DNA of 64,000 bases from IMG/VR virus record IMGVR_UViG_3300046660_000403, positions 1 to 64,000 of that record. One strand, written 5' to 3'. The DNA comes from a virus. Both the position numbers and the translations under genes were made by a program. Below are positions 5,148 to 37,400 of the stretch, one piece after another (position 1 is the stretch's first letter; each line of letters opens with the position of its first letter). The notes beneath the pieces are model-generated. The model ran no database searches, was not told the origin of the DNA, and was given only the letters and a program-made list of their open reading frames with translations.

Positions 5148-5267
5148 CTATGCCTGGTGGAATAGCTGCCGGTAAGTGGCGCGCTGCCGCGTGACGCGGT
5201 CAGGCTGTTTCGGAATCGCTTCCGAGAGGGGGATGCCCTTCGCCAAAGCTTGGCAAGGGGCGGTCAT
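5148..5267 (-). CDS. 39-aa ORF coupled to the CII-like gene
   Basis: MTAPCQALAKG...; ATGA overlap with the stop at 5264; below the ORF-track size cutoff. Confidence 0.4.
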   Translation of the reverse strand: MTAPCQALAKGIPLSEAIPKQPDRVTRQRATYRQLFHQA

Positions 5268-5584
5268 TTGTATTCGTCGGGCTGGACGTAGACAACGGCG
5301 TCTGCCGGTACGACCTTCAAGCCCAGGCAGGCAAGCAAACGGACGACAAACGCGAGTTGACCGCTGGTTTTCCAGCGCGAGACGGCCGAATCATGCACCC
5401 CCATGCGCTGCGCGACGACCACAGCGGTTACCTCATTCAATCTTTGCAAAATATTACTGTTTATTTTGCGCGTGGCCGTGATGTATTCCTGCGATACTGG
5501 AAACGCTTCAAAGGCCTGCATGCGGGAAAATTCCGCCGCCTGGTCTGCGTCATCATTGCCTGCTGGGGGAACTGCGTCGGTCAT
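5264..5584 (-). CDS. CII-family transcriptional regulator
   Basis: INSNILQRL...VAQRMGVHDSAVSRWK...LLACLGLKVVP resembles lambdoid CII; AGGA RBS. Confidence 0.75.
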   Translation of the reverse strand: MTDAVPPAGNDDADQAAEFSRMQAFEAFPVSQEYITATRKINSNILQRLNEVTAVVVAQRMGVHDSAVSRWKTSGQLAFVVRLLACLGLKVVPADAVVYVQPDEYK

Positions 5585-5740
5585 TACGTGGTCCTGATGG
5601 CGTGGATTGAGTGGGACGTTGATGGGCCTTGCTCTCCGGGGACTTGCCCCATTGCAAGGCCAGCGATGCAGCGCCGGCAATTCAAGTTTCTTCGGATTAA
5701 TATAAATTTAAACTCAATGTTAAAGGAATTGGGCAATTTC

Positions 5741-5782
5741 TACAACTTATTCTTGTAGTGCCGCCTACAACGAAACGTTGTA
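5741..5782. promoter_or_regulatory. two 17-bp operators, TACAAC-N5-GTTGTA
   Basis: 5741-5757 has one mismatch; 5766-5782 has perfect arms; both lie between the divergent CII-like and repressor genes. Confidence 0.75.
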
Positions 5783-5793
5783 ACCTTACGCCC

Positions 5794-6204
5794 ATGACGA
5801 AACTGAAAGATGATGTTGCAGCAGGCTTCCTAGAGAGGCTGACGCAGCTGCTCGACAAGAAAAATAACGGCAACCAGTCAGTGTTAGCCCGCGCCATCAA
5901 AGTGTCGCCGCAAGCGGTCAATCGGTGGTTCTCGGAAGGGCATATTCCGCGCGAAGCCACCCTTAATAAAGTCGCTGCCTACCTGGGCACCACGCCGGCC
6001 TACCTCAAGTACGGCGACGGTCCGGCCGCCGTGCCCGCCACCTATGAACTGATGTACGTCCAGATCGGGCCGGAAACGTCCCTGCTGTCGCATTACAGGG
6101 AAGGCACGGCGTCAGGCAAGGAACAGCTGCTCACCACCGCCGAGCACATCGAAAAACTGCCGGCGGACCAGCTGCCCGCCAATCCCCAGTTAGCCTCGAA
6201 CTAG
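5794..6204 (+). CDS. phage repressor (XRE HTH, no S24 peptidase domain)
   Basis: NQSVLARAIKVSPQAVNRW HTH, AYLKYGDG motif; divergent from the early operon. Confidence 0.85.
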   Translation: MTKLKDDVAAGFLERLTQLLDKKNNGNQSVLARAIKVSPQAVNRWFSEGHIPREATLNKVAAYLGTTPAYLKYGDGPAAVPATYELMYVQIGPETSLLSHYREGTASGKEQLLTTAEHIEKLPADQLPANPQLASN

Positions 6205-6423
6205 GCGTAAAGCCGGTCGCGCCTTGGGCTGCGCCGCGACTGCGCTCGACAGGTACGCCTTCCGCGCAAAGCCCTTGGCCGTACGCAGCAAGAATGCCTG
6301 GTCAACTGGCCGGGCGGTATCGTAGGCGCGCAACAACTCACTGCGCGGGTCGCTTCCCACCTTGACGGCCGATCCATCCCATCCTGTTTTCATTTTTATC
6401 ATACCTCTTGAAATAATTTCCAT
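6190..6423 (-). CDS. small protein, candidate antirepressor (probable start 6393)
   Basis: AGAGGT RBS 9 nt before ATG 6393; similar to the repressor C-terminus; RPALRLVRG tail. Confidence 0.65.
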   Translation of the reverse strand: MEIISRGMIKMKTGWDGSAVKVGSDPRSELLRAYDTARPVDQAFLLRTAKGFARKAYLSSAVAAQPKARPALRLVRG

Positions 6424-6512: not shown

Positions 6513-6531
6513 CTGATAGTTTAACTATCAG
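6513..6531. promoter_or_regulatory. 19-bp palindrome CTGATAGTT-T-AACTATCAG
   Basis: Perfect arms in a divergent intergenic region; extra half-site at 6476-6485. Confidence 0.6.
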
Positions 6532-6585: not shown

Positions 6586-7779
6586 TTGACGCATCCAGAC
6601 CCCAACATGATCGGCCCTCTCACCGCCCCGCCCATTCGCCTCACCCGCGCGGCCCTCACCCAAATCGCACAGCGCCGCCTCACCGTTGAGATTGATGATG
6701 GCTTTCTGGAGCAGATCAAGCGCATCGTCCCCGCCCTGATTGCCGGCTACAGTGAGTGGTCCGGCCCAGCCACGGCGACGTCGGACGCAAGGGTTCGCTG
6801 GCACTGGTACTTCGATGAGGCGCTGCAGCGTTTTGTGGTACCACCGCACGGCGTGCAGTCGAACATCATTCTGGTTGATGGTGATGGCCGCGACGCGCCA
6901 CCCGATGCCCTGGTGCGCCTCATACTGCGCCGCATCCGCCGGCGCCACGACTGGCAGCCCTGGATGCGCCTGGCCACGCTGAACCGCCGAAGCGCCATGC
7001 CCACCGCATCCGTCGCGGCGCCGCGCGGCACCGGCTCACAGATCATGACGCCGGTCGCGCATCGTGACGGCACCTGCCGTTGGGGCAAGCAGGCACTGCG
7101 CGAACTGGAGCAGCTGCCCGACGATCGGAAATTCGCCAGGATCGCCAAGTGGGCGCGCGAATTGTTCGGGTTTCAGCATACGATGGCAGTGGCCCGCTCA
7201 CGCCATGACCCCAACCTGTTCTCTATCGAGGAAAATTTCCAGCTGAAATGGCGTGAAATCTACGAGCGCGAGCATCTGGTGCTGATCGACCCCAGGCTAA
7301 CGTGCGCACATGGCGCCACAACGTGGACGGCGCGTGCGTTGCATGCCCAGAATCCCGCCTTCTGGAACGTCGCCATGGCGCACGGTATTCGCTCGGGTTG
7401 GCTCATGCGGTCCGCCGACGGCAGCGCCGCCCTGGTGCTGTCACGCCCAGATCCGGACATCACCGCCCAAGAGTCCGCCCTGATGACGCCCAACTTGGTG
7501 ATGCTCGCCCATGCGGCTCATGACCTGATGGCGCGCCAGCTGGGCAGCGTGAAGCGGCGCGGCAATGCCCCCTACGAGAGGGCGCTGCCGGAAAATGATC
7601 TGGAGATCATCGCCCACCTGCAGCGGAACAAGCCGCGCAAGGCAATCGCGGCGATGCTTGGCAAAAGCATCGCCACGGTCGACCGCCGGTTACGTGTGAT
7701 CAAGGACAAACTGGGCGTGGACAAAACGACCGACATCGTCGAAGTGGCCGTGCAAATGGGCCTGCTCAAGCCCATCTGA
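6586..7779 (+). CDS. RsaM(DUF4902)-like domain fused to a LuxR-family autoinducer-binding regulator
   Basis: AGYSEW...WHWY...VQSNIILVD...DW at the N-terminus; WREIY...IDP...W...G ligand-pocket residues; C-terminal LuxR HTH. Confidence 0.85.
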   Translation: MTHPDPNMIGPLTAPPIRLTRAALTQIAQRRLTVEIDDGFLEQIKRIVPALIAGYSEWSGPATATSDARVRWHWYFDEALQRFVVPPHGVQSNIILVDGDGRDAPPDALVRLILRRIRRRHDWQPWMRLATLNRRSAMPTASVAAPRGTGSQIMTPVAHRDGTCRWGKQALRELEQLPDDRKFARIAKWARELFGFQHTMAVARSRHDPNLFSIEENFQLKWREIYEREHLVLIDPRLTCAHGATTWTARALHAQNPAFWNVAMAHGIRSGWLMRSADGSAALVLSRPDPDITAQESALMTPNLVMLAHAAHDLMARQLGSVKRRGNAPYERALPENDLEIIAHLQRNKPRKAIAAMLGKSIATVDRRLRVIKDKLGVDKTTDIVEVAVQMGLLKPI

Positions 7780-7780
7780 T

Positions 7781-8770
7781 TCAGCAATCGATTCCAGCGC
7801 CCGTTTTCATGAATTGCGCGTGGGAGAACGGTGTGCGATCACGAAAGCTCGCCGGCACCTCGAATAGCGCCCAGTAGTATTCGCTTTGCCCCAGGCAGTG
7901 CATGGCCGTCCGGCAGTGCTGCATTGGGTCGTCCATCTGGCTTGAATACAGGCCGTCACCGGTGGGGAAGAACGGCACCACGCGGCACTCAAACAGCTCG
8001 CGCAACAGTTCGGCCGGCGCGCCGCGATCACGCGCCCGCTCGAATTGGCGCACCATCATCGCCTCGGTCTGGACCACCATCAGCATCGGCGCGCCATCGG
8101 CGTCGAAAAATAGCAGCCCGATCGGCGTGGCGAACAGGTAGTGCTCGACAAACCCATACCTGTCCATCAGATCCCGCACCAGGGAGTTGAATACGGCATC
8201 GCGGAGAAACCCGTACGCCTCCCCTTCCAGTTTGCGGTGATGCAGCTCGCGCGAGCGGTCGAGAAAGTACGCGTCTTGCAGCCCTTCGATCTCTTCGTTC
8301 AGCCTGCTTAGGCTGGCGTCATCCCCTCGCCGAACAAATCGGTCAATCAGCCCTCGGTTGAAGGCTTCGACTACCTCCTCGTTCGCATCGACGCTGGACA
8401 ACCACACTTTTTTGCAAGGCAAGTGCGAGACGGCTTCGCACGCCTCCATGCCGCTGCCGTTGGGGCGGTTGTACTCCACGACCACGACCGTGGGCGTGCA
8501 AAAGCGGCGCGGGTCTTCGACATAGTTGTAGATGCGCTCCAGATCGCCGGCTTGGGAAAACAGTGCATTGGCTATCTGCACGGGCGCGCCGGCACGCTTG
8601 GCCCGCGAGAAGGAGGACTCCATCCAAGCCACCGCATCCGCCGCGTCGTCAAAACGACGGTGCGCCAGGGCCGGCCGAAAGTGCTCCACGTGCGCTCCTA
8701 GTGGGGCCAGTTCGTCATCGATGAGCACGGTCAGCGTGGGGTGGCGGTAGAGCGGTAACTGAGGGGCCAT
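7781..8770 (-). CDS. LqsR/JqsR-like response regulator with Glu at the phospho-Asp position
   Basis: PTLTVLIDD...PRRF..VVVVEY.RP...KKVWLS...EAFNRGLIDRFV...VEHYL match the LqsR family as I recall it; GGAG RBS. Confidence 0.8.
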   Translation of the reverse strand: MAPQLPLYRHPTLTVLIDDELAPLGAHVEHFRPALAHRRFDDAADAVAWMESSFSRAKRAGAPVQIANALFSQAGDLERIYNYVEDPRRFCTPTVVVVEYNRPNGSGMEACEAVSHLPCKKVWLSSVDANEEVVEAFNRGLIDRFVRRGDDASLSRLNEEIEGLQDAYFLDRSRELHHRKLEGEAYGFLRDAVFNSLVRDLMDRYGFVEHYLFATPIGLLFFDADGAPMLMVVQTEAMMVRQFERARDRGAPAELLRELFECRVVPFFPTGDGLYSSQMDDPMQHCRTAMHCLGQSEYYWALFEVPASFRDRTPFSHAQFMKTGAGIDC

Positions 8771-8867
8771 GCAAATCTCCAGAGCGTGGCCATCAGTATA
8801 TAGCCTTTTATACAACGCACCAAAGTGAAAGTTTCACTCAGGAACTAAACACAGCCAAAACAACAAT

Positions 8868-8924
8868 AAGACATCAATTTAAAGTTGCTATATACTCTGT
8901 AAAAATCAACTTTCAATTGTAATT
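8868..8924 (+). promoter_or_regulatory. promoter AAGACA-N17-TATACT with two operator-like sites
   Basis: ATCAAT-N5-GTTGCT at 8873-8889 and ATCAAC-N5-ATTGTA at 8905-8921. Confidence 0.6.
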
Positions 8925-9097
8925 CGGCGCCACCAGCGGCATCGCAAGAGATAAGGTGACTTTCATTGTAGGGACCGGGCGCCGCCCGTCATCCCTTAAA
9001 CGGTCTGGGGGGACTATGGAAGAAACCTTATCTGTTGCGCCTGCCAGGCGTGCCTCGGCGTGACCGCCAACCGATCACGATCACTCTACCCGGAACC

Positions 9098-9337
9098 ATG
9101 ATCTCTCACCTGAAAACTAGCTTACTCCTGGCCAGCGCGATGCACGCCAATCCGGGCCGCACACGCCAGCCTGGTACGACGATGAGCGCCAACACGGCGG
9201 TCTTGACGCTGCCGCCCTGCATGCAGCCGCTCTCACCCGCCGAAAAGCTCACCTGGCTCGGCATCACCATCATCGTGGTGATCGTCGTGGCCGGCGTCAA
9301 CCAGTGCCCAGGATTGCCACTGCCACCGATTTATTAA
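9098..9337 (+). CDS. small membrane protein (start uncertain)
   Basis: WLGITIIVVIVVAGV hydrophobic segment. Confidence 0.5.
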   Translation: MISHLKTSLLLASAMHANPGRTRQPGTTMSANTAVLTLPPCMQPLSPAEKLTWLGITIIVVIVVAGVNQCPGLPLPPIY

Positions 9338-9352
9338 CCCAGGAGTTCCCGC

Positions 9353-9613
9353 ATGGCCAAAAAGAAGAATGGCGCCATTACGCCCATAGTCGCCTACAAC
9401 ACCAAGATCGCCCCGATTGTGGACCACCTGAACGCGAGTTGTCGGCAGTACGGCATCACCAACTTGACGGCATTCAGCATTCCGGAGACGGCCGATACCG
9501 GGCAGATCGTCGCCAGCGTGCAGCCCGACGCGCAGGGCCGTTTGCCATCTGAGTTCATGGTGATGCTGGCCTACCTCAAGGGCGACACCGGGCTGCCCAC
9601 GCGCACCCAATGA
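9353..9613 (+). CDS. hypothetical protein
   Basis: AGGAG RBS; GC3-rich codon usage. Confidence 0.75.
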   Translation: MAKKKNGAITPIVAYNTKIAPIVDHLNASCRQYGITNLTAFSIPETADTGQIVASVQPDAQGRLPSEFMVMLAYLKGDTGLPTRTQ

Positions 9614-10871: not shown

Positions 10872-11071
10872 AGGCCAAGCGGGCGAAGTGCGCCGCTGCC
10901 GTTCCTGAGCTGACGGATGCGCAACGGCTGGATCACCTGGGTACTGCAGGTGGCTTCCTGCGTGGCACGGCCGATGGTGCAATTGCCTATAGGATTCTAG
11001 GCAGCGATGTATGGCTCGCCGATCTCCGAGAAGCCATCGACGCGCACGCCATGGCGGCCAAACAATCCTAG
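10868..11071 (+). CDS. hypothetical phage protein
   Basis: ATGA coupling; DAQRLD...DLREAID motif typical of phage small proteins. Confidence 0.6.
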   Translation: MKAKRAKCAAAVPELTDAQRLDHLGTAGGFLRGTADGAIAYRILGSDVWLADLREAIDAHAMAAKQS

Positions 11072-11142
11072 TAGCGCCCCTTTTGTTACTGATTTCCCTT
11101 TATTTTTCAAAAACCATATTGAAAAGAACCTTGAGGAAAGAT

Positions 11143-12231
11143 ATGATAGGCAACATTAATTTTGAACCAAGGCAAATTATGCGATCTTTTGATGGGGTGA
11201 AGGCGAAACTCGCCATGGAGCTGACCGGCTTCACTGGCACGCCGAAGACGTTCCGCGCTCGCTATCGCGATTCGACCGATAACTCTCATAAGCTTTATTC
11301 AGCGCAAGAAATTCGGCATATCCGCATGGATTTACTGGGCATCCCCCAAGATACCACGCGTTCGCGCAGCCTCCCACCAATCATCGACACGCGCATGGCC
11401 AAGGGCGGCGTCGGAAAGACGACCATTACTGGCAACGTTGCCAGTTGCCTTGCCCTGTCTGGCTACAAAGTGCTGCTGATCGATGGCGACCCGCAGGCAT
11501 CATTGACATCCCTGTTCGGCATCAACTGGCTGGAAGAAGAAATCACTCATGTTTCCAAGCTGATGCAGCGCGCTGCACGTAACGAACCTGCCAATCCAGA
11601 GCAGGCGGTACGCTCGGTCTACCCAGGCGGCATGCTGGATCTGATCCCAAGCGATATCACGATGGTGGATGACACGTGGCTGATGGGGATAATGAACCGC
11701 GAATTTGCATTCCAACGCCTGCTGGAGCAGGAACTGGAATTCTTTAGCAAATATGACGTCATAGTCATCGACTCTGCTCCGGGTGCCTCCCTGCTTTCCA
11801 CCACCTTTATGGTGGCCAGCAAAACTCTATTAACCGTAGTATCGCCGGAGGGCCAGGCTATCGCAGCCCTGGACGTGCTGGCGTCGAATGTTCAGGAGAT
11901 CAACGCGGCCTTCAACCGCCAGGGCATCAACTTGGATGTGCATATCGTTGTGAATCAATACAACCAGACGAAAAAACCGCACAATTTTTCCCTCTCCAAG
12001 CTACTGGCGAAGTATCCGGACAAGATTAACGACACCATCGTGCGTGACTTCGTCGGTTTCTTGCGCGAGACCGACCCGGATAGCATCCATACCAATGGTC
12101 CCGTGCTGGAAAAGGAGCCCAATAGCGGCGGCGCACGCGACATTATCGACCTGACCAAGTCCCTTACGCGTCTCTACAGTATTCGCTTGGCCGGCGCTGG
12201 CCCGGCCGCCCAGCTGGAGGAAGCCGCGTGA
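11143..12231 (+). CDS. parA: ParA partition ATPase with N-terminal extension (type Ia-like)
   Basis: KGGVGKTT, LLIDGDPQAS and IVIDSAP motifs; GAGGA RBS. Confidence 0.93.
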   Translation: MIGNINFEPRQIMRSFDGVKAKLAMELTGFTGTPKTFRARYRDSTDNSHKLYSAQEIRHIRMDLLGIPQDTTRSRSLPPIIDTRMAKGGVGKTTITGNVASCLALSGYKVLLIDGDPQASLTSLFGINWLEEEITHVSKLMQRAARNEPANPEQAVRSVYPGGMLDLIPSDITMVDDTWLMGIMNREFAFQRLLEQELEFFSKYDVIVIDSAPGASLLSTTFMVASKTLLTVVSPEGQAIAALDVLASNVQEINAAFNRQGINLDVHIVVNQYNQTKKPHNFSLSKLLAKYPDKINDTIVRDFVGFLRETDPDSIHTNGPVLEKEPNSGGARDIIDLTKSLTRLYSIRLAGAGPAAQLEEAA

Positions 12232-13163
12232 GCAAGCCAGGATTCAAGGTATCCGGATTAATCCAATCCGGGCGTGTCGTGCCGGCCACCGGCATCACTC
12301 CATCTGCGGCATTCTCGCCACAGGACGCACCGAGCGGCCCAGAAGCTCCGACCCCTGGAACCGAAATGATGATGCGGCTGGACCTGCTGGATGATAGCCC
12401 CTATCAGACGCGCCTCAAGATTGATCCACTGCGCGTGGACGCCATTGGCCAGTCCATGCTGGCCACGCGCCAGGTTGATCCCATTGAGGTGCGGATTGTC
12501 AAACCGGGGCGCGCAGAAGTCGTCAAAGGGCATACCCGCAAGTACTCGGCCCTGAGCATTGGATGGGAAGAGGCGCGCGTGCTGATTGTTGCCCTGTCCG
12601 ACAAGGAAGCCGCTGCCGCCGTCCTGATCGACAACACCGGCACCCCGCCGCACGACTACGAGTACGGCCGCAGCTTCCGCCGCCGACTGGATGAGAAGCT
12701 GGCGACTACCCAGTCCGAGCTGGCAGTACAAGTCGGCAAGTCTCAGGGCTTCGTGTCCAAATGCCTGTCGATGTTGGAACTGCCCTCGCCTATTCTTGCG
12801 CTGCTGGATGACGAGCCCGGCCTATTTGGTGTGTCTGCCGCCGCCAATATCCAGGCTCTGTGGAAGGCCTACCCGGAACACACGGCGATCATCGTAGAGG
12901 GCGTCAAGCGGTTCAAGGAAGGCGCCGATCAAAATGGCCTGAAGGCCTGGGTGGTTCAGCAGATTTCTAGGCTGGACACTGAGAAGAAAGATGTGAGTAA
13001 TCGCATCATTCCAAATTCTTCCGGCAATACTGCATACGTTACAATAGTGAAGAAGCGCGATATTACTATTCGCTTGGCAGACCGCAATTTGGATCTGGAA
13101 GCGCATCGCGACAAAATAGAATCGTTCCTGCGGACGTTAATTCAGCAGGAGAAAAATAGTTAA
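12228..13163 (+). CDS. parB: ParB partition protein
   Basis: SPYQTR, QVDPI, GHTR motifs and HTH TQSELAVQVGKSQGFVS; follows parA. Confidence 0.92.
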   Translation: MSKPGFKVSGLIQSGRVVPATGITPSAAFSPQDAPSGPEAPTPGTEMMMRLDLLDDSPYQTRLKIDPLRVDAIGQSMLATRQVDPIEVRIVKPGRAEVVKGHTRKYSALSIGWEEARVLIVALSDKEAAAAVLIDNTGTPPHDYEYGRSFRRRLDEKLATTQSELAVQVGKSQGFVSKCLSMLELPSPILALLDDEPGLFGVSAAANIQALWKAYPEHTAIIVEGVKRFKEGADQNGLKAWVVQQISRLDTEKKDVSNRIIPNSSGNTAYVTIVKKRDITIRLADRNLDLEAHRDKIESFLRTLIQQEKNS

Positions 13164-13171
13164 TGTTAATA

Positions 13172-13210
13172 AAATCAATGACTTACGGATTATTCAAATT
13201 GAATAATCGC
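13172..13210. repeat. 39-bp direct repeat, copy 1 (IHF-like site plus palindrome)
   Basis: AAATCAATGACTTACGGATTATTCAAATTGAATAATCGC. Confidence 0.85.
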
Positions 13211-14771: not shown

Positions 14772-14810
14772 AAATCAATGACTTACGAGTTATTCAATTT
14801 GAATAATCGC
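14772..14810. repeat. 39-bp direct repeat, copy 2
   Basis: AAATCAATGACTTACGAGTTATTCAATTTGAATAATCGC; 3 mismatches to copy 1. Confidence 0.85.
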
Positions 14811-22209: not shown

Positions 22210-22260
22210 TTGACTGCTCTCCTTTGCAAGTCATAAAATTACAACTGTAAGTTGATTTTT
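22210..22260 (+). promoter_or_regulatory. promoter TTGACT-N18-TAAAAT followed by operator TACAAC-N5-GTTGAT
   Basis: 22237-22260 matches the reverse complement of 8901-8924 at 22 of 24 positions. Confidence 0.7.
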
Positions 22261-25487: not shown

Positions 25488-28400
25488 TTAGCCGCGTGTT
25501 TCGGCCAGTTCGCGGCTGACCGTCGCCTTGAGCGCCACCGGCGCGCTCTTCTGGGTCCGGTTCGCCGCGTCCTGGCGCATCGACCGCACCCGTTTCAGCA
25601 CGCCCGGCATGCTGACCTTGACGGGCGCCTCCGGGTTCTTCGCGTTCCAGTCGTCGCGCCAGTCACGCGCGGCCTGCACCATGCCCGCATCGTTCTGGGC
25701 GATGCCCTGCGCCCAGTGCTCGGCGATTTCCGCCTGGCGCATGCGCGTCTGCGCCAGCATGTTGAGCGCTTGCCCCTTGGCATCCTGAATATCGGCCGTG
25801 CTGTTGGGCTGGAAGCCGATGATCTTCATGATGCCCTCGGTGGTGCTGGTGTCGTTGACGCGGTAGCCGCGGGCGTCGTTGTAGCTGCCGCTGGCCAGCA
25901 TGTCGGCGCCCTTGATGACGTTGCGCACGGACGCCGGCGACACATCGAGCGCCGCGCCGGCGATATCGCCACCGAGCAGCTTGCCAGCGCCGGAGAACGC
26001 GCGCGCCGCCAAGTCACCAGCCGGGCCTGCCAGCTCGCCCAGATCGCGCGTGTAGCTCTCCTTCTTCTGCAACAGGCCGGTACCGGGAATCAGGTTACCC
26101 ATGCCGAAGCGGCCGGCCACGTCCACCGGCATGCCTGGCAGGCTCGAAATGCCCTTCAAGGCAAAGTCGGCGCCGCCTTGGCCCAGCACGTTCGTCAGGA
26201 AGGCCTGCTTGGCGCGCTTGGTGGCGAAGTTGTAACCCAGGCGTTGCATAATGCCGTCCAGCGCATCCTCCAGATCCTGCTCGAACGGCAGGCCGTCGGC
26301 GCCGGACATCAGGAACAGCACGGCCACCATGTACAGCGCGGCGCGGCGACCGGCCGCACGCTCCTTGGAGCCTGGTTCGCCAGCCATGGCCATGCGCGTG
26401 AGCAGCTCCAGATAGCCGATCGAATACTGCTTGAACGTCAGCAGCAGCGAACCGATGGTGCCACGCGCCCAGCGCGGCTTGTTGCCTGAGTTGTAGGTGC
26501 CCTGCGTTTGCGAAACCGCCTCCTGGGCGAACTTGGCCGGGTTGCCCATGCCCTGCGCGATGGCAGTGCGGTAGGCCGCGATGAAGGTGATGCGGCGGTT
26601 GGCCAACTCGGCCATGGCGAACAGCTTGCCCCAGCCCAGCGAGACCTTGGCCATGGCGTTGTTCAGGTGCGCGCGGGTGTTCCCGGCCAGCGTGCCGTCG
26701 CCGGTACGCAGCGAGCCCTTGCCCGACGCCTGCGCCTGCAGGTAATGCACCTCCTGTGGCGCCACGATGCCCTCGTCCTCGGCCCACTTGAGCGCCGCGT
26801 CCAGATCCGCATCGCCAGTGCTGTCCTTACCGGCCAGTTTCACCGCGTCGGCCAGCGCCTTACCGGCCTTGGCCAAGCCGCCCCACTGGCTCAGGTACGG
26901 CAGCGTCATGGTGAAGGGCTGCGTCAGGTTGACCATGGCTGATGCGACCGAACCGCCCAGGAACTGCGCGAACATCAGCCCGCCCAGTTGGTGGCCGCCG
27001 CCCTCCGGGTTGCGGATGTGCTCGCGCAGCTGCATGGCCGCGTCCGTCAGTTCCCCCTCCTGCTTGGGGATGGCGGTGACGGCCTCGTCGATCTCGCCCA
27101 GGTGGGCGTTGCCGGCGGTCAGGCGGGCATTGCTGTAGATGAAACCGGCCAGCACGCGCCCCGCATCCTCCGAGAAACCGGCGATGCCCTTGCGCTGGAT
27201 CATGCGCTTCATGGCGCTGCGGTTGTTCTTGGCCAGCTTCAGATACGCCTGGTAGACTTCGGTGCTGGCGGCATCGGCCTGGCTGTCCAGGCCCACCATG
27301 GAGCCGAACAGTTCGATCGTCTCGGGCGATACGCCGGCGAACAGTTTATAGGCGTCCTCCGACACCGTGCCCTGTGTCACCAGGGCGCCGGCGTGCGCCT
27401 CGCGCATGTCGCGCGCCATCTTCGCGGCCTCGTGCTGCGACTCGAACATGCCGAAATACACCTGTTCTTCGCCGTCCTGCACGTAGACCGTGTACTTGCC
27501 GAAGCGCGACAGCGGCGCGTAGCCGCGATCCATCAAGCCTTGTCCCTTGTCGGCCAGGTTCATGATCTGGCTGGCCGTGTCGAGGTGCATGTCGGTCTGC
27601 TCCGGATGCAGCTTGGCCAGCGCGATGAAGTGGTCGCGCAGCAGGTTCGCCGCCTGTGCCAGGCTTGGCTCGGCCACGGCCTGCTCTTGCAGGCTCTTGG
27701 CGTCCTTGCCGCCCAGTTTCACCATTTCGCTGATGGTAAGATTGGTCAGGCTCTTGTCGAGCGCGGCGCGGAACTCGCGGTACAGCGCGATCTGCGCATC
27801 GGAGAGGCTGAACTTGTCGCGCAGCTCGGCATCGCTCCACACCACGCCTCCCTGCAGCTGCGTGGCCGTGTAGCGACTGTTGATGCTCGCATCGTAGATG
27901 CCCAATGGGCTGGCCAGCCACGCCTGGTGCTGCTGGTGGTCGATGATGCCCTTGGCCAGCAGGATGCGCGCCTTGTCGGCAGTGCTCATCTGCTCGGCCT
28001 GCGCCTCCAGATCGGCCATGCTGATCGGCGCGCCGTTGGCATCGCGCGCCCAGCTCAGCGTGCCCTCGAAGATCGGCGCGGCGATCGCCTTGCTGTCCTC
28101 GGCGGTCAACGGCTTCTTGCGGTTCTTGCCGATGATGTCGGCGATGTTCTCCAGCTTGGGCAGCAGCGTGGGGGCCATGTCGGCCGCCACCACCGCATAG
28201 CGCGACACGTCGCCCAGGAAGCGCTGCACAGCCTCGTAGACCGGTGCGAAAATCGGGCGGCGCTTGGCCAGGTTGTCCATGGTGCCCAGCGTCTTGTGCC
28301 ACCAGTTGAGCTTGCCGGAGCTGTTGAACAGATCGCCCAGGCGGTAGCCGGCCGGCAGGCGCAGATCCTCGATGCTGTTGGCCGCGCCCGCCAGGCGCTC

Positions 28401-31400
28401 GCCCAGGCCGGTGCGGCTGTATGCGGCCGCATCACCCGCCTCGTTGACCAGCGTATGCACGGTCGGGCTATGGGCGAGGAAGTCCGTGCCCCACGTCGCG
28501 CCGTTCACGCGCGCGGTCTGGGCGTCAGCCGAAACCACGTCCGTGATCACGCCCGCCTCCACCCACGGCGCGAACGCGTCAACGTCGGCGCCTTCGGGCA
28601 GCGCCAGGAAGCGGTGTCCGCCGCTGCCGGTCTCGCGCACCATGCGGCGCAGCACGCCCTTGCCCTTGGCCAAGCCGCGTTTGCTGGTGTCGGTCAGCGC
28701 GCCCATCGGCACGTCCACCAGCAGCTGTACGGCGCCGTGAATGTCGGTCAGCACCAGCGCCGCGTGCCCGGCCGGGATTTGCAAAGCCTTGGCCAGCTGC
28801 GCCACATAGCCCGGTCCCTTGATGGCCACGCCCAGCAGTTGGTGCTCCAGCTCGGGCGCGCCGGTGAAATCGACGCCGTTCAATTCCGGCGCGGCCACCA
28901 GATCATGCGCGCCGGCGGCGTCGATGATGGCGTATTCATTGTGATCGATGACGACGTGCCCGCGCATGCCGGATACGGCAGCGGCGGTGCCGGTGGTCAG
29001 GTCGACGTCAGCGTCGGATGGCGTGGCGCGGCCCGACGGGTGGTTATGCAGCAGGTAGTAGCCATCGGCGCCGAAGCGGGCCTTGTCGGCCGCCACTTGC
29101 GCGTTCAGGTTGTTCGGCGTGCCCACCGATGCCGGCAGGCGCGAGGTGTAGCCGGCCTCGCCGACGATCTGGTCGCCAGCGGTGTAGAGCACGCGGAAGG
29201 TCTCGAAACGGGGATCGCGGTAAACCTGCGCCAGGGCGGCCAGGTCGGCCGGCGTGTGGACTACTTGCCCGACAAGCTCGTTGGGCTGTCCGGCAACGAA
29301 CCCGGCGAGCAACCGGCTACCGAGTACGGTAGCTGCGCCTCGACCAGCTGGATTGCCTTCGCCGATACGATCAACGCCGAGCCGTCGGGAAAGTGCTTCG
29401 ACGGCAGCGCGTCCGGTTCGCAGTTGGGCGTCGGTACTGCCTGGGCGGGTGTCGGTGTGTTCATAGGCGTCATTATAACCGGACGGTCCGGGCTCATGCA
29501 GCGTGCGCGGGGCGCTGCCCTGCCCTTGCGCCGCGGCGTGCTCGGCCCAGGTATCGACCAAGATGGCGCGCACCGCTTCCACGTCGCGCACCAGGTTGGC
29601 GGCGTCCCAGCGCGACCCGCGCAGCGCGCCGATCAGCTTGGCCGCCACTTCCATGAATTTATAGGCCACCTGGCGGAACAGGGAACGGTCGGCCTTGGCC
29701 AGGTCGGACCAGAACACCGGTTCGAGCCACATGGCGCCGTTGATGTCGGCGATCACCTCGGCCTCGGCCTGCTCCATGGGCACGTCCTGCAAGCCGGCGG
29801 CGACGTACTCGCGCAGCTGGCGATCGGCCACCACGCCATCCTTCAGGTGGGCGCGGATGCGCTCGCGCAGCTTGGCCCCGAGTGCCGGGTTCGATTGCTC
29901 CAGGGCGTGCAGCGTCTCGTGGCCGGCGATGGCCAGCACGGGATTGTGCAGGCTTTCCGCCAGGTAGGCGGTGCCGCGATAGGCCACACCCTCGAAGTCG
30001 CCATTGGCGGAGACGAAATTGACGTCGATGCCCAGCGCCTTGCCGGCCTGGCGCGCCAGCGCGAAGCCGGCATTGGGCGCCGTGCGCAGCGCGCGCACCG
30101 GCGCCATGCCTTCCTTGGCCAGCACGCGGTTCAGCTGTTCGGTGGTCTTCTTCGCTGCCAGCAGCTCGGCGCCGGTCAGCACCAGGGGCGCCGCGGTGCC
30201 CGCGTCATGTCCGGCAGGAACGGGCGGCAGGAAGGCGCGCGCCTCATCGCGGAAGTATTCGGCGTCGCGGCTGTACAGCACGCCCGCCAGCGGCGTGCTT
30301 ACACGTTGTAAGAGCCGGTCTGCAACGTGATCCAGTACGTCTCGCCCGCCGTCGCGTCCTTCTTCGCGTAAAACGGCTGCGACAAGTGCCGCTCTCTTAA
30401 GATCAGACACCCCAATCGGAGGCGTATACGCTCCTCGGTGGGATGGAAAGAGTGCGTCATAAGCCCGGCGAAGCGATCCTGCAGCAGCTGCAAAATCCGC
30501 GTCTGTGAAAGGTACTGCATCCACTCGTGCGAGCTGCCCTTCTGCTTCATCAGGGCCAGCAGCGCCTCGTCCGGCAGTGCTTCGATCTCCTCCTGATCCC
30601 AGTCCATCCGCATCAGCTTGTTCTCCTGCAGCGGATTGGTCAGCCAATAGTGCGCCGGAAGATGCCCGAACGGGTGCGGCGTCGCGTTCAAAGCGGGCAC
30701 GGGAGAAGTTGTAATGGACATCGGCGATCTCAGGGAAGACATGCAGGATGTTAGTGTAGGACGAAAGCAGCAGCTCGCGCAAGTTGTGCGCGTCGTCACC
30801 GGTGCGCCAGGCGACCGGGCGCACCGGCACGCCGGTGGCCGTTTGGATCGCTTCCACCTGGCGCGCGTGCGGCGCCAGGTGGGCGGTGGTGCCGTGGCGC
30901 AGCGCCGACGAGATCATCTGCTCGGTGCGGCGGTACAGCGCCTTGTCGGACAGCCCTTGCGGGTCGCCGATGAATACCTGCTTCGTGTTGTGCGCGAAAG
31001 TGGCCACCGCCTGGTAGACCTGGGCGCCCAGCTTGCCCTCCTTCCAGTTGGAGATATCGAGCCAGACTTCCTTGTTCTTGTTGTTTTTGTACACCCAGGC
31101 CAGCTCGCCGTCGGGAGACGTAATCTGCCAGACGCGGTCCACCGGCGTGGCGGCGTCCTCTTCCTCACCCTGGCTGTAGAACTCGTCCACGGTCATGCTC
31201 GGCCCCACTTCGGCCAGCACACCGGCCAGCGTCTTGGCTTCGCTACCAGGCAGGCGGAATGCGTCGTCATCGCTGGCCAGCTGCGAGAAGATATTGACCA
31301 GCTGATCGTCCGTGTCGATGCGCGCACGGCTGAATTGCGCCTCCGCCGGCGCCTGGCGCATGTAGCTGCCGTCCGCGCGGCGCAGCGGGTTGCTGCGCGC

Positions 31401-34400
31401 GACAATGGCGCGGGCGGGCGTGGAGGGGCCGCTCGACAGTTCGCGGATCACGGTTTCCAGACGCGCGTGCTTGGCATCCAGCTCGCCCTGCTGGGCGAAC
31501 GGGCCACCCTGGCGCGCGCGCAGATCCGGCAGCGAAGCCTCGGCGGCGGCCAGGCGGCGCGTAAAGTTGCCGATCGCCGAGGTCAGTCCGGATGGGTTGA
31601 GCGTCTTTTCCAGATCCTCCACGGCCGTGCGCATGGCCGACGTGGTGTACTCCGGGTTTTCGCGCCAATTGGTGTCACCGGTGGCCAGCGTGGAGCCATC
31701 CCAGCGCAGCACCGCCAGCGAGGTCCAGTAGCCGGCATTGCTGTCGTGCTCCATGGTCGCCTGCAGCGGCAAGCCGCGGAACTGGCCGATATCGACCGTT
31801 TTCGCCGCGTTCTCGCCCAGTTCGCCCGATACCTCGGCGGCAATCTCGGCGATGGCGCGCGCGGCGTCGGTGCGCGCGCCGAGATCCTGCCCGTTCACCG
31901 TCATGTGGAACGGCTGCTGGTCACCCAGGGCCGCACCCACGGCCGCCATGGCGCCATCGAGCGAGGCCAGGCGGCGGCCGTTGACCTTGACCGATACCTT
32001 GGCCTTGTCGTCGCCACCCTGCTGGGCGGTGACGGCTTCCATCACGGCGCGGCGCGCGGCGGCGCCGTCGTTGAAGTGCTCGCCCTCCACGCTCACGCTG
32101 CGCGCCGACACGGCCTGCTCCTGGGCCGACAGGCCCGCGTGCACGTCGGCCAGGTCGGATTCAGCCATCTTGATGCGCGCCGGCAGTTTGGCGACGCTGC
32201 TTTCGGCGTCCTCGATCTGGCTGGTGATGCCCCACTGTTTGCGGGCGTGCTGACGCTTGAGCAGCTCCAGCTTGTCGATTTCCGAGACCAGCTTGACGCG
32301 CTCCAGCAGCAGCGGGTCGCCGGAAGCCAGCGCGGCCAGTTCGGCCATGCTGACCGATTCCTCGTCCTCGAAGTCCATCGAGAACGCGCCGTCGTACTTG
32401 CGGATGGCGTTGATGGTTTTCAGCTTGGACGAGTTCAAGGCCCACATCTTCGCGTCGATGGTGCGCTCGGTCGCGTAGGCCAGGATTTCCAGCTCGAAGG
32501 CGTCGATGCCGTACTTGGCCAGCAGCTTGTTGCCCTGGCGGACGCCGCGGCCTTCACGCTGCTCGATGTCGGACGGCTTCCACGTCACGTCGGCGTGGTG
32601 GACGGCCACGATGCGCTGCTGCACGTTGGTGCCGGCGCCCATGCGTGGCGTCGAGCCGAGCAACACGCGCACGGTGCCGTCGTTGACGGCATCGAACAGC
32701 GCTTGCTTCTGGGCGTCGGTGTTCGCCTCCTGAACGAAGCGGATCTCGGCTGCCGGGATGCCGCGCGCAATCAGATTGTCCTTGATCTGCTGGTAGGCAT
32801 TCCAGCCGCCGGCCTGGGCATTGCGCAGTTCCTCCATTTCGTTCGGGTCGAAGCGCTCCAGCTTCTCGCCGGCGGCGCGCATGGCGCCCTCGTTCTGGTC
32901 CTTCAAGGCCTGGCGCTGCGCGGCCAGCAGCGCGTCGTACTCTTTGAGCACGGCGTCGTCGCCCTTGGCCTTGGGCACGGAGCGGTCGAGGAAAATGAGC
33001 TGCGTACCGCGATCGGCATGCCACTTGTCGTAGATGCGCTTGACGTTGTCAGCGATCACGTCCAGCTTGCCGCCCTCTTCGCGGCTGGTGGAATGCGGGT
33101 TGGCCGCGCGCACGTCCAGCGAGACCTTGCGGGCGCGGTCCATCAGGCGCAGGCGCGCCTTGTTGCGCTCGTACGGGTCCACGATGTTCGGCAGGCCGTC
33201 GAAGCCTTCCAGCACCTCATCGAGCAAGTTGATCTGCGCCTTGGTTGGCGCCATCACCACCGATTGGCGGTCACCGCCAGCTACGCGCGGGATCGGAAAG
33301 GCCTCGCCGCCGTTGTCCTCGGCATAGGCGCGCTTGATATCGTCGTTGTCCACGGAGTCGGTGAACGAGTAGTACAGGTCCATCAGCGAGCGCATGTTCG
33401 ACCACGTGCGGCCCAGGCGATTGACCTCCTTCAGGCGGCCGGTCTCGGTCGGCTCCCAGCCGGCGTCGGTGCTGACGAACTGGGCGCGCCAGGCGTCGAA
33501 GTGCTCCAGGCCCAGCTCCTTGAGTTCGTCGGCGGCCAGGTAGCGCATCATGTTGTACATTTCCACGGCCGAATTGGAGATCGGCGTGCCGGTCAGGAAC
33601 GTGACGGTGCCGGTTGGCGACTCGCGCAGCACGCGCACCTTGTTGTACAGGTCGAAGGCCTTTTGCGAGCCGGTCTTGTTGCCCATGCCCTTCACGCCGG
33701 TCAGGCGCGAGCTGTAGAACAGGTTTTTGAATTCGTGCGCCTCATCCACCGTCAAGTCATCGATGCCCATCTGCTCGAACGTCAGCAGGCGGTCCTTGTT
33801 CTTGTCGCCCTTGACCTTCTCCATGCGCGCGGTCAGCTTGTCCACCAGGCGCTCGGCCTCCTTCACGCCGAACGGCTTGCGGAAACCGGCTTGGCCGCTG
33901 TCCTCGGCCTCCTCTTCGGCCTCGGCCACGGCCGCGACGGCCGCGTCGAGTTCCTGCTGCAGGAAGCGCTCCTCGGTTTCGGGCGCGATGCCGATGAAGC
34001 CGAACGACGAGTGCGGCAGGATCACGATGTCATAGTCGCCGGTGGCGATCTTGGCGAACAGCTGGCGGCGGCGGCTCTTTTCAAAGTCCTTCTTGCCGGC
34101 CGCCAGCACCTTGGCGGCCGGGTATAGGCGGTACACGTCGGAGGTGAACTGCTCCACCATATGATTCGGCACCACCATCGTCGGCTTCTTCGACAGGCCC
34201 ATGCGGCGCCGTTCCATCGCCCGCGCGATCGCCGTGTAGGTCTTGCCAGCCCCGACCGTATGGTCGACCAGCATGAAACGCTCGCTGATGCCGCGCCAGA
34301 TCGTGTTCTTCTGGTGGCGGCGCATGGCGATCACGGCGTCCGGCACTTTCCCGGGCAGGAACAGGTGCGAGCCATCGTGCTGGCGCATCACGCGGGTGTT

Positions 34401-37400
34401 GAACTTCTCGTTGAAGATCTCCACCAGCTGGTTGCGGCGCGCGCCATCCTTGTACACCCAGTCGGAAAACTCGGTGCTGATCGCCTTGGCCTTGAGCAGC
34501 GCCAGGGCGGTTTTCTCCTGGTCCACGTGCGCGCCGCCGTCCTTGTCGTAGTACACCACCTTGATCGCGCTGTTGTTGAGCAGCGCGGCGATCAGCTCGA
34601 CGGAGGTGTAGCCGGGCGAGCCCCACTCTTCCTCGCTGGCGCGGTTGGTCGCAGCGCCGGTGACGCTGTAGCTGTTGGTGACGGCGGAATACGCCACGCG
34701 CGCGATGGCGGTGCCGGCGATGTGCTGCACGAAGTCGGCGTACACCGACGGCGGCACCCACGACGAGCCCAGCAAGGCGGTCACATTTTCGGCGCCCCAC
34801 GGCTCGGGCTGCACTTCTTCCAGGGCGTTGATGTTCTGCACCAGGCGTGCGGCGCGCGCGGCGTTGAGCTTGCGCTTGACCTGTCCGGACAGGTAGCTGT
34901 TGCGGGTCTCCCACAGGCCCGACTCAGGATCCTTGAACAGCAGCGGCTTGTCGGCCGCCGCCAGTTCCGCCTCGACGGCGGCCACGTCCTTGCCCAGCAG
35001 GGCGGCAATGCGCTCCAGATCCACGCGGCCGGCTTCGGCCATGTTGATGGCCACCGCGTCGGCCAGGGAGTCGGCCGTGGTTGGTGCCTCGTACGGCACG
35101 ATCACGCGTTTCGACAGGATCGGCGCCGGCTCGGCGGCCGCCGGGCGCACCTTCTCGCCGATGCGCGCGGCGCGCGCGGCCGTGATCGCTGGACGGTAGC
35201 CCGATTCGAGCGCCTGCACCAGCGCGCCGTCCGGCATGTTCGTCACCAGGGACGAGTTGGCCGGTTCGGAGACCAGGCCGTGCTCTTTCACGAATGCCTG
35301 GTAGGCCGCCGCCAGACTGGCGCGGTTGGCCTCGATCGCGGCCGTCTTGGCGTCCTCCGCCTCCAGCGACAGCTGCTCCTTGAGCAGATCGCGCAGCGCG
35401 ACGAGCTGGCGCAGGCGCTCGTAGCGGGTTTTCCCCAGTAGCATGGCCGATGGAATATCCGCCTCGCTGGTGAACACCTTGCGGTCGTACACGTTCAGGT
35501 TGGTGGTTTTGCCGTTCTTGACCTGTTTGACCGGCTTGCCGTGCTCGTCCATCTGCGCCTCGATGGTGTACCACTTGCCGTCGCGGTCCATATATAACGC
35601 GTCGGACCAGGGCGATTCCGGCGCCAGGATGCGGCGCGTCAGTTCAAAGGCGCCTTCGGGCGTCTCGCGCTCAACGACTTGGTGCAGTACGCCGCCGGCC
35701 TCCAGCTTGATCGAGCCGTTTTCGTGGCCGGCCAGGGCGATGCGCAGCGCATCGCTCATGTCCTTGTGGCGCGCGATGGCCGCGCTGATGCCGTCCGGCG
35801 TCTGCGTCATGACCGACTGGGGCAGGTGCTTGATGGCGCCGGCCAAGCGTTGCGCCAGGCTGTCCGGATCGTCCAGGCGCACCGTGATGTCGTTTCCATA
35901 GGCCATACTGCCCGAGCGCTCCAGCACGCCCATGACCATATGCGGGTGCTTGGCGAAATAGGTGTTCACGCGCATCGTGTCGCCGCCCAGCGGGTCGGCC
36001 AGCTCGGTGGTCTGCACCCATTCAGGCACTTGCGCGGCGAGCGCCTGGCGCTCGTCCTCGGCTTGGCGGCTGGTTTCCGGCTTCTGGGCCGCCGCGGCGA
36101 ATGCCGCCTCCATGGTCGCTTCCTCGGCTGGCGTGAGGCGCTGCAGGAATACCATATCGGTGACCACGGAGGTGCGCGCGTTTTCCTTGAATGCCGTGTC
36201 CGGCAGGCGGATGGCGCCCAGCAGGCGCGCCTTCTTGGCCAGTTGCACGCGCGAGGATTTATCCAGCTTGTCCAGCAGGTAGCGCGAGACCACCTGCACC
36301 TGCAGGCCGCCCGGCTTCAATGCGTCCAGCGAGGCCAGGAAGAACTGGTTGTGGATCGAATGGCCGTTGATCTCGGGCTTGAACTGGAAGCGCAGCGACT
36401 GGTCGCCGAATGGCGGATTGCCGATCGCCAGGTCGAATGCGCCATCGGCCAGCGGCACGCTCTGGAAGCCGCTGTTGAGCACGGTTTCGTTCGGGTACAG
36501 CAGCGCGGCGATGCGCGCGGTCAGGTTGTCGTACTCGACGCCGATGAACTTGGTGCGTGCGCCTACGTCTTCCGGCATCAGGCCGATGAAGTTGCCGGCA
36601 CCCATGGACGACTCCAGCGCCATGCCGCCCTGATAGCCCAGGCGGCGCGCGGCGGCCCACATGCTTTGCACGACAGTTTGCGATGTGTAATGCGAGTCCA
36701 GCGTGGAGCGGCGCGCCAGCGCGTACTCTTTCGGGCTCAGCAGCTCGGCCAGGTCGGCGCCGCGCTGGCGCCATGCGTCCTTGAACTGGCCCGTTTCAGG
36801 CGACGGGAAGGCGTTGGCCAAGCCGCCCCAGCCCACGTAACGGGCCATGATGGCCTGTTCCTGGGGCGTGGCGTGGCGATTTTCGGCCTCGACCGCGCGC
36901 ATGGTGCGGATCGCGGACAGGTTGTCGTTGAATTTCTGGACTTCGCCGCCCTGCCCCAGGCGCACGTCGTCGGTGATGTGGAAATTGAAGGCGGGCACCG
37001 ATGGCGCCGCCGCAGGGGCGATCGCGCTTACGTCGGATTCGGCTCGCGCATCTTGTCCTGGTACGCGTTCTCCATCTCGGCCAGCTCCTGGGCTTCCCAG
37101 TCCGTCTCTGGCGCTGGTTCCGCCGTCAGCAGGATATACCGGCTCAAGGCCACTTCTTCCGCTTCGTGCTGCTGATACCCGCTTTGCTGCAGGTTGGCGA
37201 TCAGCCGATGCGCCGCCACTGCGGCCGCCTCCGTCGCTTCGCTCCACTCGCCCTGCGCTTTCAGCACTTCCGTCTTGTGCGGCAGCCAGGTCTCCCAGTG
37301 ATGGCGCGCCTTCGCCGCCAGCGTTGCTATGTCCATGATCTTCCTTCTCTTTCGTATTGGGGGTCAGTGTATCGGATTTTTCGCGCGATGCAACATCGGC

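Follow-up and report, generated by a model that had tools for sequence, protein, structure and literature searches.

Does a phage-borne response regulator of the LqsR/JqsR/PhcX family still answer to a host kinase when a glutamate stands at its phospho-acceptor position and, if not, through what does it act? This question was raised by a gene, here called LqsR-phi, in IMG/VR virus record IMGVR_UViG_3300046660_000403. The DNA analyzed (the window; 64,000 nucleotides) is the first 64 kb of this 76,831-bp record, which has terminal repeats and is rated 100% complete. A sequence-only reading of the window had presented the gene as an orphan LqsR/JqsR-like regulator with a natural Asp-to-Glu change, forming a signal-independent or dominant-negative copy that overrides host quorum-sensing (QS) output. 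The answer we favor, as reasonably probable, is that LqsR-phi, an LqsR paralogue without the acceptor aspartate, has ceased to receive phosphate and works via its conserved output domain, probably on an adjacent RsaM-LuxR fusion protein encoded beside the immunity genes. The features of LqsR-phi are listed below by position in the window.

7781..8770, minus strand: LqsR-phi coding sequence (LqsR/JqsR-family paralogue), 329 amino acids; ATG at 8770, stop at 7783-7781.
8777..8780, minus strand: ribosome-binding site GGAG, 6 nt 5' of the ATG, as read from the sequence.
Within LqsR-phi: receiver-like half, about residues 1-150, and LqsR-type output half, about residues 151-329.
8714..8719, minus strand: Asp18-Asp19 acidic pair (LIDDEL) at the end of beta1; kept here, DE or EG in other members of its clade.
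8474..8476, minus strand: Glu99 (Glu114 counted from TTG), codon GAG, at the phospho-acceptor position, end of beta3.
8327..8329, minus strand: Arg148, where the family has a pocket Lys (K in 145 of the best 150 among 1793 family representatives).
8156..8164, minus strand: Asp203-Arg204-Tyr205 (DRY), in output-domain helix 192-205; central to the contact predicted with the RsaM-LuxR fusion.

The longest minus-strand frame at this locus (7781..8815) opens at TTG and spans 344 amino acids. Since the N-terminus of the homologues is always M-x2-3-LPLYRHPT and GGAG precedes ATG 8770 by 6 nt, the shorter frame, 7781-8770(-), was taken as the true coding sequence.

Membership in the LqsR family was examined by sequence, structure and phylogeny. 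A phmmer search against all PDB chains returned one real match, Legionella pneumophila LqsR (6sy9; E 1.1e-21, query residues 21-319), and this alignment placed Glu99 of the VVVVEYNRP segment on the Asp of VVVVDYAMP. The published phospho-acceptor of L. pneumophila LqsR is Asp108 (PMC5289986). The AlphaFold2 (AF2) model of LqsR-phi, built from a 70-row alignment, had a predicted local distance difference test score (pLDDT) of 92 and a predicted template-modeling score (pTM) of 0.90. When this model was submitted to Foldseek, 6sy9 ranked first (E 4.4e-24, template-modeling scores 0.76/0.81, 323 columns covering both domains), and the remaining matches were to the receiver domain only, with receiver-domain structures at E about 1e-5. 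In the AF2 model the (alpha/beta)5 receiver fold is kept (strands 13-18, 36-40, 93-99, 120-125 and 144-147, with helices between), and D18/D19, E99, S125 and R148 lie at the C-terminal ends of beta1, beta3, beta4 and beta5, the layout of a canonical receiver. Pfam, NCBIfam and PHROGs assigned no family to LqsR-phi, the Pfam Response_reg model did not match it even at E 0.1, and BFVD gave receiver-domain matches only, with no viral two-domain LqsR-like protein. LqsR-phi is 40-43% identical to chromosomal JqsR, and its element-borne clade is placed inside the family as sister to chromosomal JqsR-type sequences. The homology that had been proposed from the letters alone thus holds across both domains by phmmer, Foldseek and tree, as do the GAG codon, its assignment to the acceptor position and the retained DD pair (LIDDEL, 8719-8714). 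These results establish LqsR-phi as an aspartate-less (pseudo-receiver) member of the LqsR/JqsR/PhcX family, with the full two-domain LqsR fold and with Glu99 in place of the acceptor Asp at the end of beta3.

Linkage to an lqsA/jqsA synthase or lqsS/jqsS kinase was not found across the 76.8-kb record: no HATPase_c, JqsS, Aminotran_1_2 or Response_reg match occurred anywhere in its 76,831 bp, which extends to the whole record the earlier remark that no kinase lies nearby. Such linkage is not obligatory in the family, as PhcX is not linked to lqsA/S (PMC10653808).

We next asked how widely the acceptor Asp is lost among relatives. A word-indexed protein search returned 166 homologues of LqsR-phi; among the 120 of these that were listed, the acceptor was D in 111, E in 7, A in 1 and K in 1. 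The nine nearest homologues carried Glu (seven), Ala (one) or Lys (one), on contigs of 72-78 kb where size was informative. The check proposed earlier, whether phage homologues conserve the Glu, thus came out positive, with Glu in seven of nine clade members. Alignment-based scans of viral, genome and metagenome contigs detected 162 loci; on the viral contigs, a single-protein scan found nothing and the alignment-based scan two relatives. At 126 loci a divergent jqsA was followed by jqsS and jqsR (identity checked by Pfam on the Janthinobacterium fluminis locus); the host-side system is the Janthinobacterium-type jqsA-jqsS-jqsR cluster. A further 32 loci were orphans or lay on short contigs, and six, the window included, had a convergent DUF4902-LuxR gene and usually ParAB; a seventh of this last kind was found in a genus scan. 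The five receiver positions read DD-D-T-K in all 158 cellular copies (126 jqsA-jqsS-linked and 32 orphan). Element proteins of the Asp type formed a cluster from many Massilia isolates, on 77-87-kb contigs, and Glu-type proteins came from metagenomes only.

A full HMMER scan of 1.84 billion representatives gave 1793 family members (E up to 0.001). In the best 150 of these, the acceptor was Asp in 141, Glu in five, Thr in one and Asn in one, with two truncated rows that do not reach the position; four of the five Glu proteins belong to the non-Asp clade of LqsR-phi and one comes from Massilia metagenome-assembled genomes. Acceptor loss is thus rare in the family but not confined to that clade. 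Outside the clade, the acceptor Asp is lost in P0133 (Glu; the Massilia metagenome-assembled genomes, with a pocket that is also degenerate), P0153 (Thr) and P0194 (Asn), which look like independent losses.

The history of the loss was followed in a tree of 65 rows (quick IQ-TREE search, midpoint root, supports by the Shimodaira-Hasegawa-like approximate likelihood ratio test). The element-borne clade (support 100), shown by this analysis to derive from host jqsR-like genes, divided into an Asp subclade of seven rows (96) and a non-Asp subclade of nine rows (99), with the Ala and Lys members nested among the Glu members of the latter. The sister clade, on Massilia plasmids, keeps the acceptor Asp. 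The simplest reading of these sequences is one Asp-to-Glu change followed by a Glu-to-Ala and a Glu-to-Lys change, each a single-base step. The Glu clade then lost further positions that the Asp subclade retains and that show 95% conservation or more among JqsR. These are the second residue of the acidic pair, five sites in helix alpha1, the M-P-x-M-N/D loop that follows beta3, strand beta4 with its loop, and the Lys of the pocket. The window protein is the least degenerate member of the clade, with DD kept, Ser125 for Thr and Arg148 for Lys. In aspartate-less receivers, Glu is the commonest replacement (26%), acidic residue 1 is usually kept and residue 2 usually lost (PMC4395418), and the pattern of the Glu clade matches this described class.

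The two halves of the protein have fared differently. Mean identity of the receiver and output halves was 0.83 and 0.70 among chromosomal JqsR, 0.69 and 0.64 in the Asp subclade, and 0.46 and 0.58 in the Glu clade, which inverts the usual order, with the receiver as the better conserved half. In Glu-type pairs, ratios of nonsynonymous to synonymous substitution (dN/dS; rough Nei-Gojobori estimates, with dS near saturation) were 0.36-0.44 for the receiver half and 0.18-0.25 for the output half; Asp-type pairs gave 0.17-0.24 for both halves. The gene is therefore maintained, its output half under purifying selection as strong as in Asp-bearing copies and its receiver half freed from the constraint of phosphotransfer and kinase docking. 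Because the pocket, alpha1 and the Lys have decayed and the phage has no kinase, LqsR-phi probably works without a host kinase; signal independence, as put forward by the sequence-only reading, is thereby supported, and so it is by the acceptor loss across the clade. In the literature searched, we found no earlier description of an aspartate-less receiver in the LqsR family and no paper linking LqsR-type proteins to phages.

The output half must then be considered together with its neighbor, which is convergent with LqsR-phi.

6607..7779, plus strand: fusion of DUF4902 (RsaM-like), autoinducer-binding and HTH LuxR domains, 390 amino acids; stop 1 nt from the LqsR-phi stop.

The convergent RsaM-LuxR fusion was present at all seven independent element loci, with a stop-to-stop spacing of 1 nt in the window, 0 nt at locus L001 and a 4-nt overlap at L004. 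At locus L003, the gene call (P0127, 298 amino acids) is without the RsaM part. Relatives of the fusion share contigs with Glu-clade proteins, seven of the nine being matched by identical longest-contig sizes; this identity of size is what the pairing is based on for P0002, P0004, P0007, P0009, P0010 and P0014. Within the fusion, W215, Y219, D228, W240 and G264, the equivalents of acyl-homoserine-lactone pocket residues of LuxR, are invariant, and the fusion carries the only DNA-binding domain of the gene pair. A more distant pair of an Asp-type LqsR-like protein and an RsaM-LuxR protein (37% and 34% identity) was observed at L178 (G036:C82), in a genome where the JqsS query was without match.

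A complex model of LqsR-phi with the fusion gave an interface score (ipSAE) of 0.76 (0.74-0.77 in three runs), whereas the highest of three controls scored 0.00. Contacts agreed between runs to at least 46%, and the pLDDT of the partner was at least 74. This mark is reached by 58 of 80 solved complexes and by 2 of 110 mismatched pairs, although own alignments were used here. On the LqsR-phi side the predicted interface consists of output-domain helix 192-205, residue 229 and residues 302-304, and on the fusion side of residues 173-184 (the first helix of the ligand-binding domain) and 210-214 (the segment before Trp215). Sequence conservation provided an independent check: every one of the 16 element copies has D203 and Y205 of this helix, 15 have R204 (Thr in L085), and all three positions vary in the 126 chromosomal JqsR. 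The complex model supports binding of LqsR-phi to the fusion, and the phage's own RsaM-LuxR protein is the best-supported partner that modeling suggests. Because the Asp-type copies share the DRY motif, the partnership appears older than the acceptor loss.

The sequence and model data are consistent with the following mechanism. LqsR-phi would take no phosphate from the host kinase JqsS, and its activity would be set by the amount made rather than by alpha-hydroxyketone signaling. Its output domain, through helix 192-205 and the DRY residues, may dock on the ligand-binding domain of the fusion, and the pair could form one regulatory unit beside the cI/CII genes, steering maintenance versus induction of the phage-plasmid or the group behaviors of its host. 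In the Asp-bearing sister elements the unit could still listen to host JqsS; in the window lineage that input would be hard-wired.

Several points weigh against this account. The complex score is a model confidence derived from shallow 9-row alignments, and the sharing of the DRY motif with Asp-type copies means that the partnership alone does not explain the Asp loss. The window row has a long branch (0.61) in a tree from a quick search. To our knowledge, the LqsR output domain has no biochemical activity assigned to it. The window protein, with its DD, Ser125 and Arg148, might retain residual metal or phosphate chemistry or undergo another modification of the Glu. The effect of an acceptor Glu also differs among regulators, some being activated, some inactivated and others unaffected (PMC4395418).

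The element and its hosts bear on the alternatives to be weighed, and the following features are relevant.

5264..5680, minus strand: Phage_CII-like gene, divergent; forms an immunity region with the repressor-like gene.
5758..6204, plus strand: HTH_3 (cI/Cro-type) repressor-like gene, just 5' of the fusion gene.
11011-13163: ParAB.

The record encodes ParA, ParB, a Replicase/PriCT initiator, a tyrosine recombinase (integrase), two DNA methyltransferases, tail fibres and a portal. Because it combines ParA/ParB, the Rep initiator, recombinase, tail fibres and portal with the CII-like and HTH_3 pair, the carrier is a temperate phage-plasmid. The full DNA was found in one sequencing run only, a rhizosphere metagenome, and the GenBank phage collection gave no nucleotide or protein match. 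The window portal is 68-75% identical to the portals of two other viral contigs and of a circular 87-kb 'plasmid' of Massilia violaceinigra B2; these four form one phage-plasmid family with a soil-dwelling Massilia host (Massilia-type Oxalobacteraceae). Massilia frigida is host to an Asp-type element; its chromosome holds jqsA, jqsS and jqsR, it also has a LuxI-type synthase, and JqsS was detected in 32 of 36 genomes of its genus. Known hosts therefore make both signals to which the gene pair could relate. A LuxI-synthase (PF00765) scan of the record was blank, a result that carries no weight since the family matched no control genome either. Massilia scottii CCM 9210 (protein cluster P0008) has two Asp-type copies, one on a contig of 77,402 bp and the other on a contig of 78,052 bp, which suggests that it holds two related phage-plasmids. 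Side observations on the window include a single frame of 5272 amino acids in the virion-gene region (25488-41306, minus strand), near-identical palindromes TATTCAAATTGAATA (13191-13205) and TATTCAATTTGAATA (14791-14805) on either side of the Replicase/PriCT gene, and small open reading frames at 6190-6423(-) and 9353-9613(+) that had no family match.

Might Glu99 instead mimic aspartyl-phosphate, holding LqsR-phi in the active dimeric state and driving the host JqsR regulon at any cell density? Asp-to-Glu mimicry works in LuxO D61E (PMC11315295) and in NtrC (as cited in PMC4395418), Glu is found in seven of the nine clade members, the Jqs system is present in nearly all hosts of the genus, and output domains of the Glu type (0.41) and of Asp-type copies (0.40) are equally similar to host JqsR. 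However, Asp-to-Glu alone is often not activating (PMC4395418), and the second Asp, the Lys and the beta3-alpha3 loop, which would hold a mimic in place, are gone as well. The DRY surface, specific to the elements, suggests action on the phage's own partner more than on host targets. Ala and Lys at the acceptor inside the same clade argue against a strict need for the phosphomimetic charge on which the earlier proposal had leaned, and we regard this explanation as unlikely. The other half of that proposal, a dominant-negative action, could be exerted by titrating host JqsS or by forming dead JqsR heterodimers, silencing alpha-hydroxyketone signaling in lysogeny. LqsR binds its kinases and dimerises on phosphorylation, with phosphorylation-dependent kinase dephosphorylation (PMC5289986); an unphosphorylatable paralogue could block either, and host and element copies coexist in M. 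frigida. Yet kinases usually dock on helix alpha1, which is scrambled in the Glu clade although JqsR and the Asp-type element copies conserve it; this argues against kinase titration. Moreover, no part of the protein is less conserved than the receiver half (0.33 identity to JqsR). A decoy is thus distinctly improbable.

Decay of the receiver raises two further explanations, of which one is that this half has been re-purposed for a new input, which might be a small ligand, some other modification, or a nucleotide bound at the GGDEF-like output domain. Clade-specific residues are fixed in the receiver half (e.g., Trp123 in eight of nine), and together with a dN/dS below 0.5 they fit the onset of new constraint better than mere decay; in addition, the output domain of LqsR resembles a degenerate diguanylate cyclase (PMC10653808). 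This analysis identified no pocket or ligand, and no diguanylate cyclase activity was found for LqsR, as reported in PMC10653808, such that a new sensor appears quite unlikely. The same loss of catalytic residues and of the Pfam receiver signature, with long branches in the clade, might be read as the mark of a captured jqsR that has become a functionless relic. However, the nine cluster representatives, all intact and full-length, with 46-52% identity and 75 invariant columns, a dN/dS well below 1 in both halves, a confidently predicted fold, and conservation of the ribosome-binding site, the -10-like box and synteny with the partner make a relic scarcely credible. An aspartate-less regulator that acts on the neighboring fusion remains the reading we prefer. 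A broader version of it, which we offer tentatively as a possibility, is that LqsR-family output domains in general act by docking on LuxR-type receptors, such that an alpha-hydroxyketone regulator and an RsaM-fused acyl-homoserine-lactone receptor would make one heteromeric switch beside the immunity genes; the element would then read two host QS systems, with the alpha-hydroxyketone input hard-wired in the Glu lineage.

The region upstream of LqsR-phi was examined for control elements, of which the following were noted.

8795..8804, minus strand: -10-like box GCTATATACT, about 25 nt 5' of the ATG; conserved in the window, L001, L003, L004 and L005.
8818-8823, minus strand: weak -35, TTGGTG, 17 nt 5' of the -10-like box; putative promoter.
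8824..8838, both strands: perfect 7-1-7 palindrome AGTGAAAGTTTCACT, abutting the putative -35 and centred near -43; specific to the lineage, its significance questionable.

A consensus promoter scan made no call at the 8795-8804 box. The decamer GCTATATACT is also found on the opposite strand (8888-8897, plus), in a promoter-like site of the divergent operon, and suggests two divergent promoters sharing an extended -10 in the intergenic region 8771-9352. The palindrome AGTGAAAGTTTCACT, to which the sequence-only reading had drawn attention, exists and is unique in the window, but it is neither conserved in relatives nor statistically remarkable, and it could be due to chance: the window contains 47 perfect palindromes with 7-nt arms (loop 0-3), and 11% of shuffles of the 582-bp intergenic segment yield such a palindrome. 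It was absent upstream of the five related genes examined (L001, L003, L004, L005 and L085) and was rejected as a conserved operator. If 8795-8800 were the -10 box, the position of the palindrome near -43 would suit an activator. An AT-rich perfect palindrome, GATAGTTTAACTATC (6515-6529), lies about 80 nt 5' of the RsaM-LuxR start, so that each of the two QS-like genes has its own upstream 7-1-7 palindrome (6515-6529; 8824-8838). The motif TACAAC-N5-GTTGTA was observed with 0-2 mismatches at 5741-5757 and 5766-5782, between the CII-like and repressor-like genes, and at 22240-22256; the window has five matches at up to 2 mismatches compared to 0.63 expected, and two are likely due to chance. 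A repressor operator of this type near LqsR-phi was rejected, as none was recovered at 8873 or 8905 with up to 2 mismatches; ATCAACTTTCAATTGTA at 8905-8921 resembles the motif with more than 2 mismatches.

Phages known to tap bacterial QS use ligand-binding receptors; here a downstream alpha-hydroxyketone response regulator was captured, and one lineage was then probably cut from the kinase. The Asp-bearing sister elements reside in culturable Massilia isolates and thus provide a matched before/after pair for the effect of acceptor loss. We know of no mechanism for the output domains of LqsR, JqsR and PhcX or for RsaM, and the conserved gene pair, clade-specific surface and model-supported complex make the question of mechanism directly testable by binding. 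Docking on LuxR-type receptors, if true, would be the first molecular output for LqsR-type regulators, the first partner for an RsaM-containing protein and the first case of a phage capturing a QS response regulator rather than a receptor.

Compared to LqsR of L. pneumophila (6sy9), JqsR of Janthinobacterium/Duganella and PhcX of Ralstonia, LqsR-phi is alike in having a receiver and an output domain and no DNA-binding domain; it differs by its acceptor Glu, its pocket Arg, the absence of linked lqsA/lqsS, its carriage on a phage-plasmid and the element-specific DRY surface. PhcX is also uncoupled from lqsA/S, yet the cellular orphans examined all keep the Asp. With the known aspartate-less receivers (ChxR of Chlamydia, which has an acceptor Glu, RitR, FrzS and the plant pseudo-response regulators) LqsR-phi shares the kept receiver fold, the replaced Asp and a presumed phosphorylation-independent action. 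By contrast to these, the loss maps here to a single branch among phage-plasmids whose sister lineage bears the Asp, a natural before/after pair.

QslA, which targets LasR, TraM, which targets TraR, and Aqs1 of phage DMS3, which targets LasR, are anti-activators that lack a DNA-binding domain and bind a LuxR-type receptor directly, as LqsR-phi would do, and their folds are unrelated to LqsR-phi. The contact predicted for LqsR-phi differs from theirs in that it is made with the first helix of the ligand-binding domain. An RsaM-LuxR chimera in two Massilia species has been treated as a LuxR solo of type 8 topology (Venturi et al. 2023, PMC10710839); the partner gene is similar in its DUF4902, autoinducer-binding and HTH domains and in having no luxI nearby. 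Unlike that solo, the fusion described here always has an LqsR-like gene as its tail-to-tail neighbor on a phage-plasmid, and its binding to the LqsR-like protein is predicted. VqmA-Phi of vibriophage VP882 and the LuxR of Aeromonas phage ARM81ld are likewise host-derived QS regulators on plasmid-like prophages near immunity and partition genes, as LqsR-phi is on its plasmid-like temperate phage. In modules of this type the receptor activates a small antirepressor gene next to it; the small frames near the LqsR-phi pair, at 6190-6423(-) and 9353-9613(+), have no family match. LqsR-phi, which has neither a ligand-binding nor a DNA-binding domain, is not a receptor but a response regulator homologue that appears to have lost its signal input; the neighboring RsaM-LuxR fusion has both domains and is a candidate autoinducer receiver of the VqmA-Phi/LuxR-ARM81ld type.

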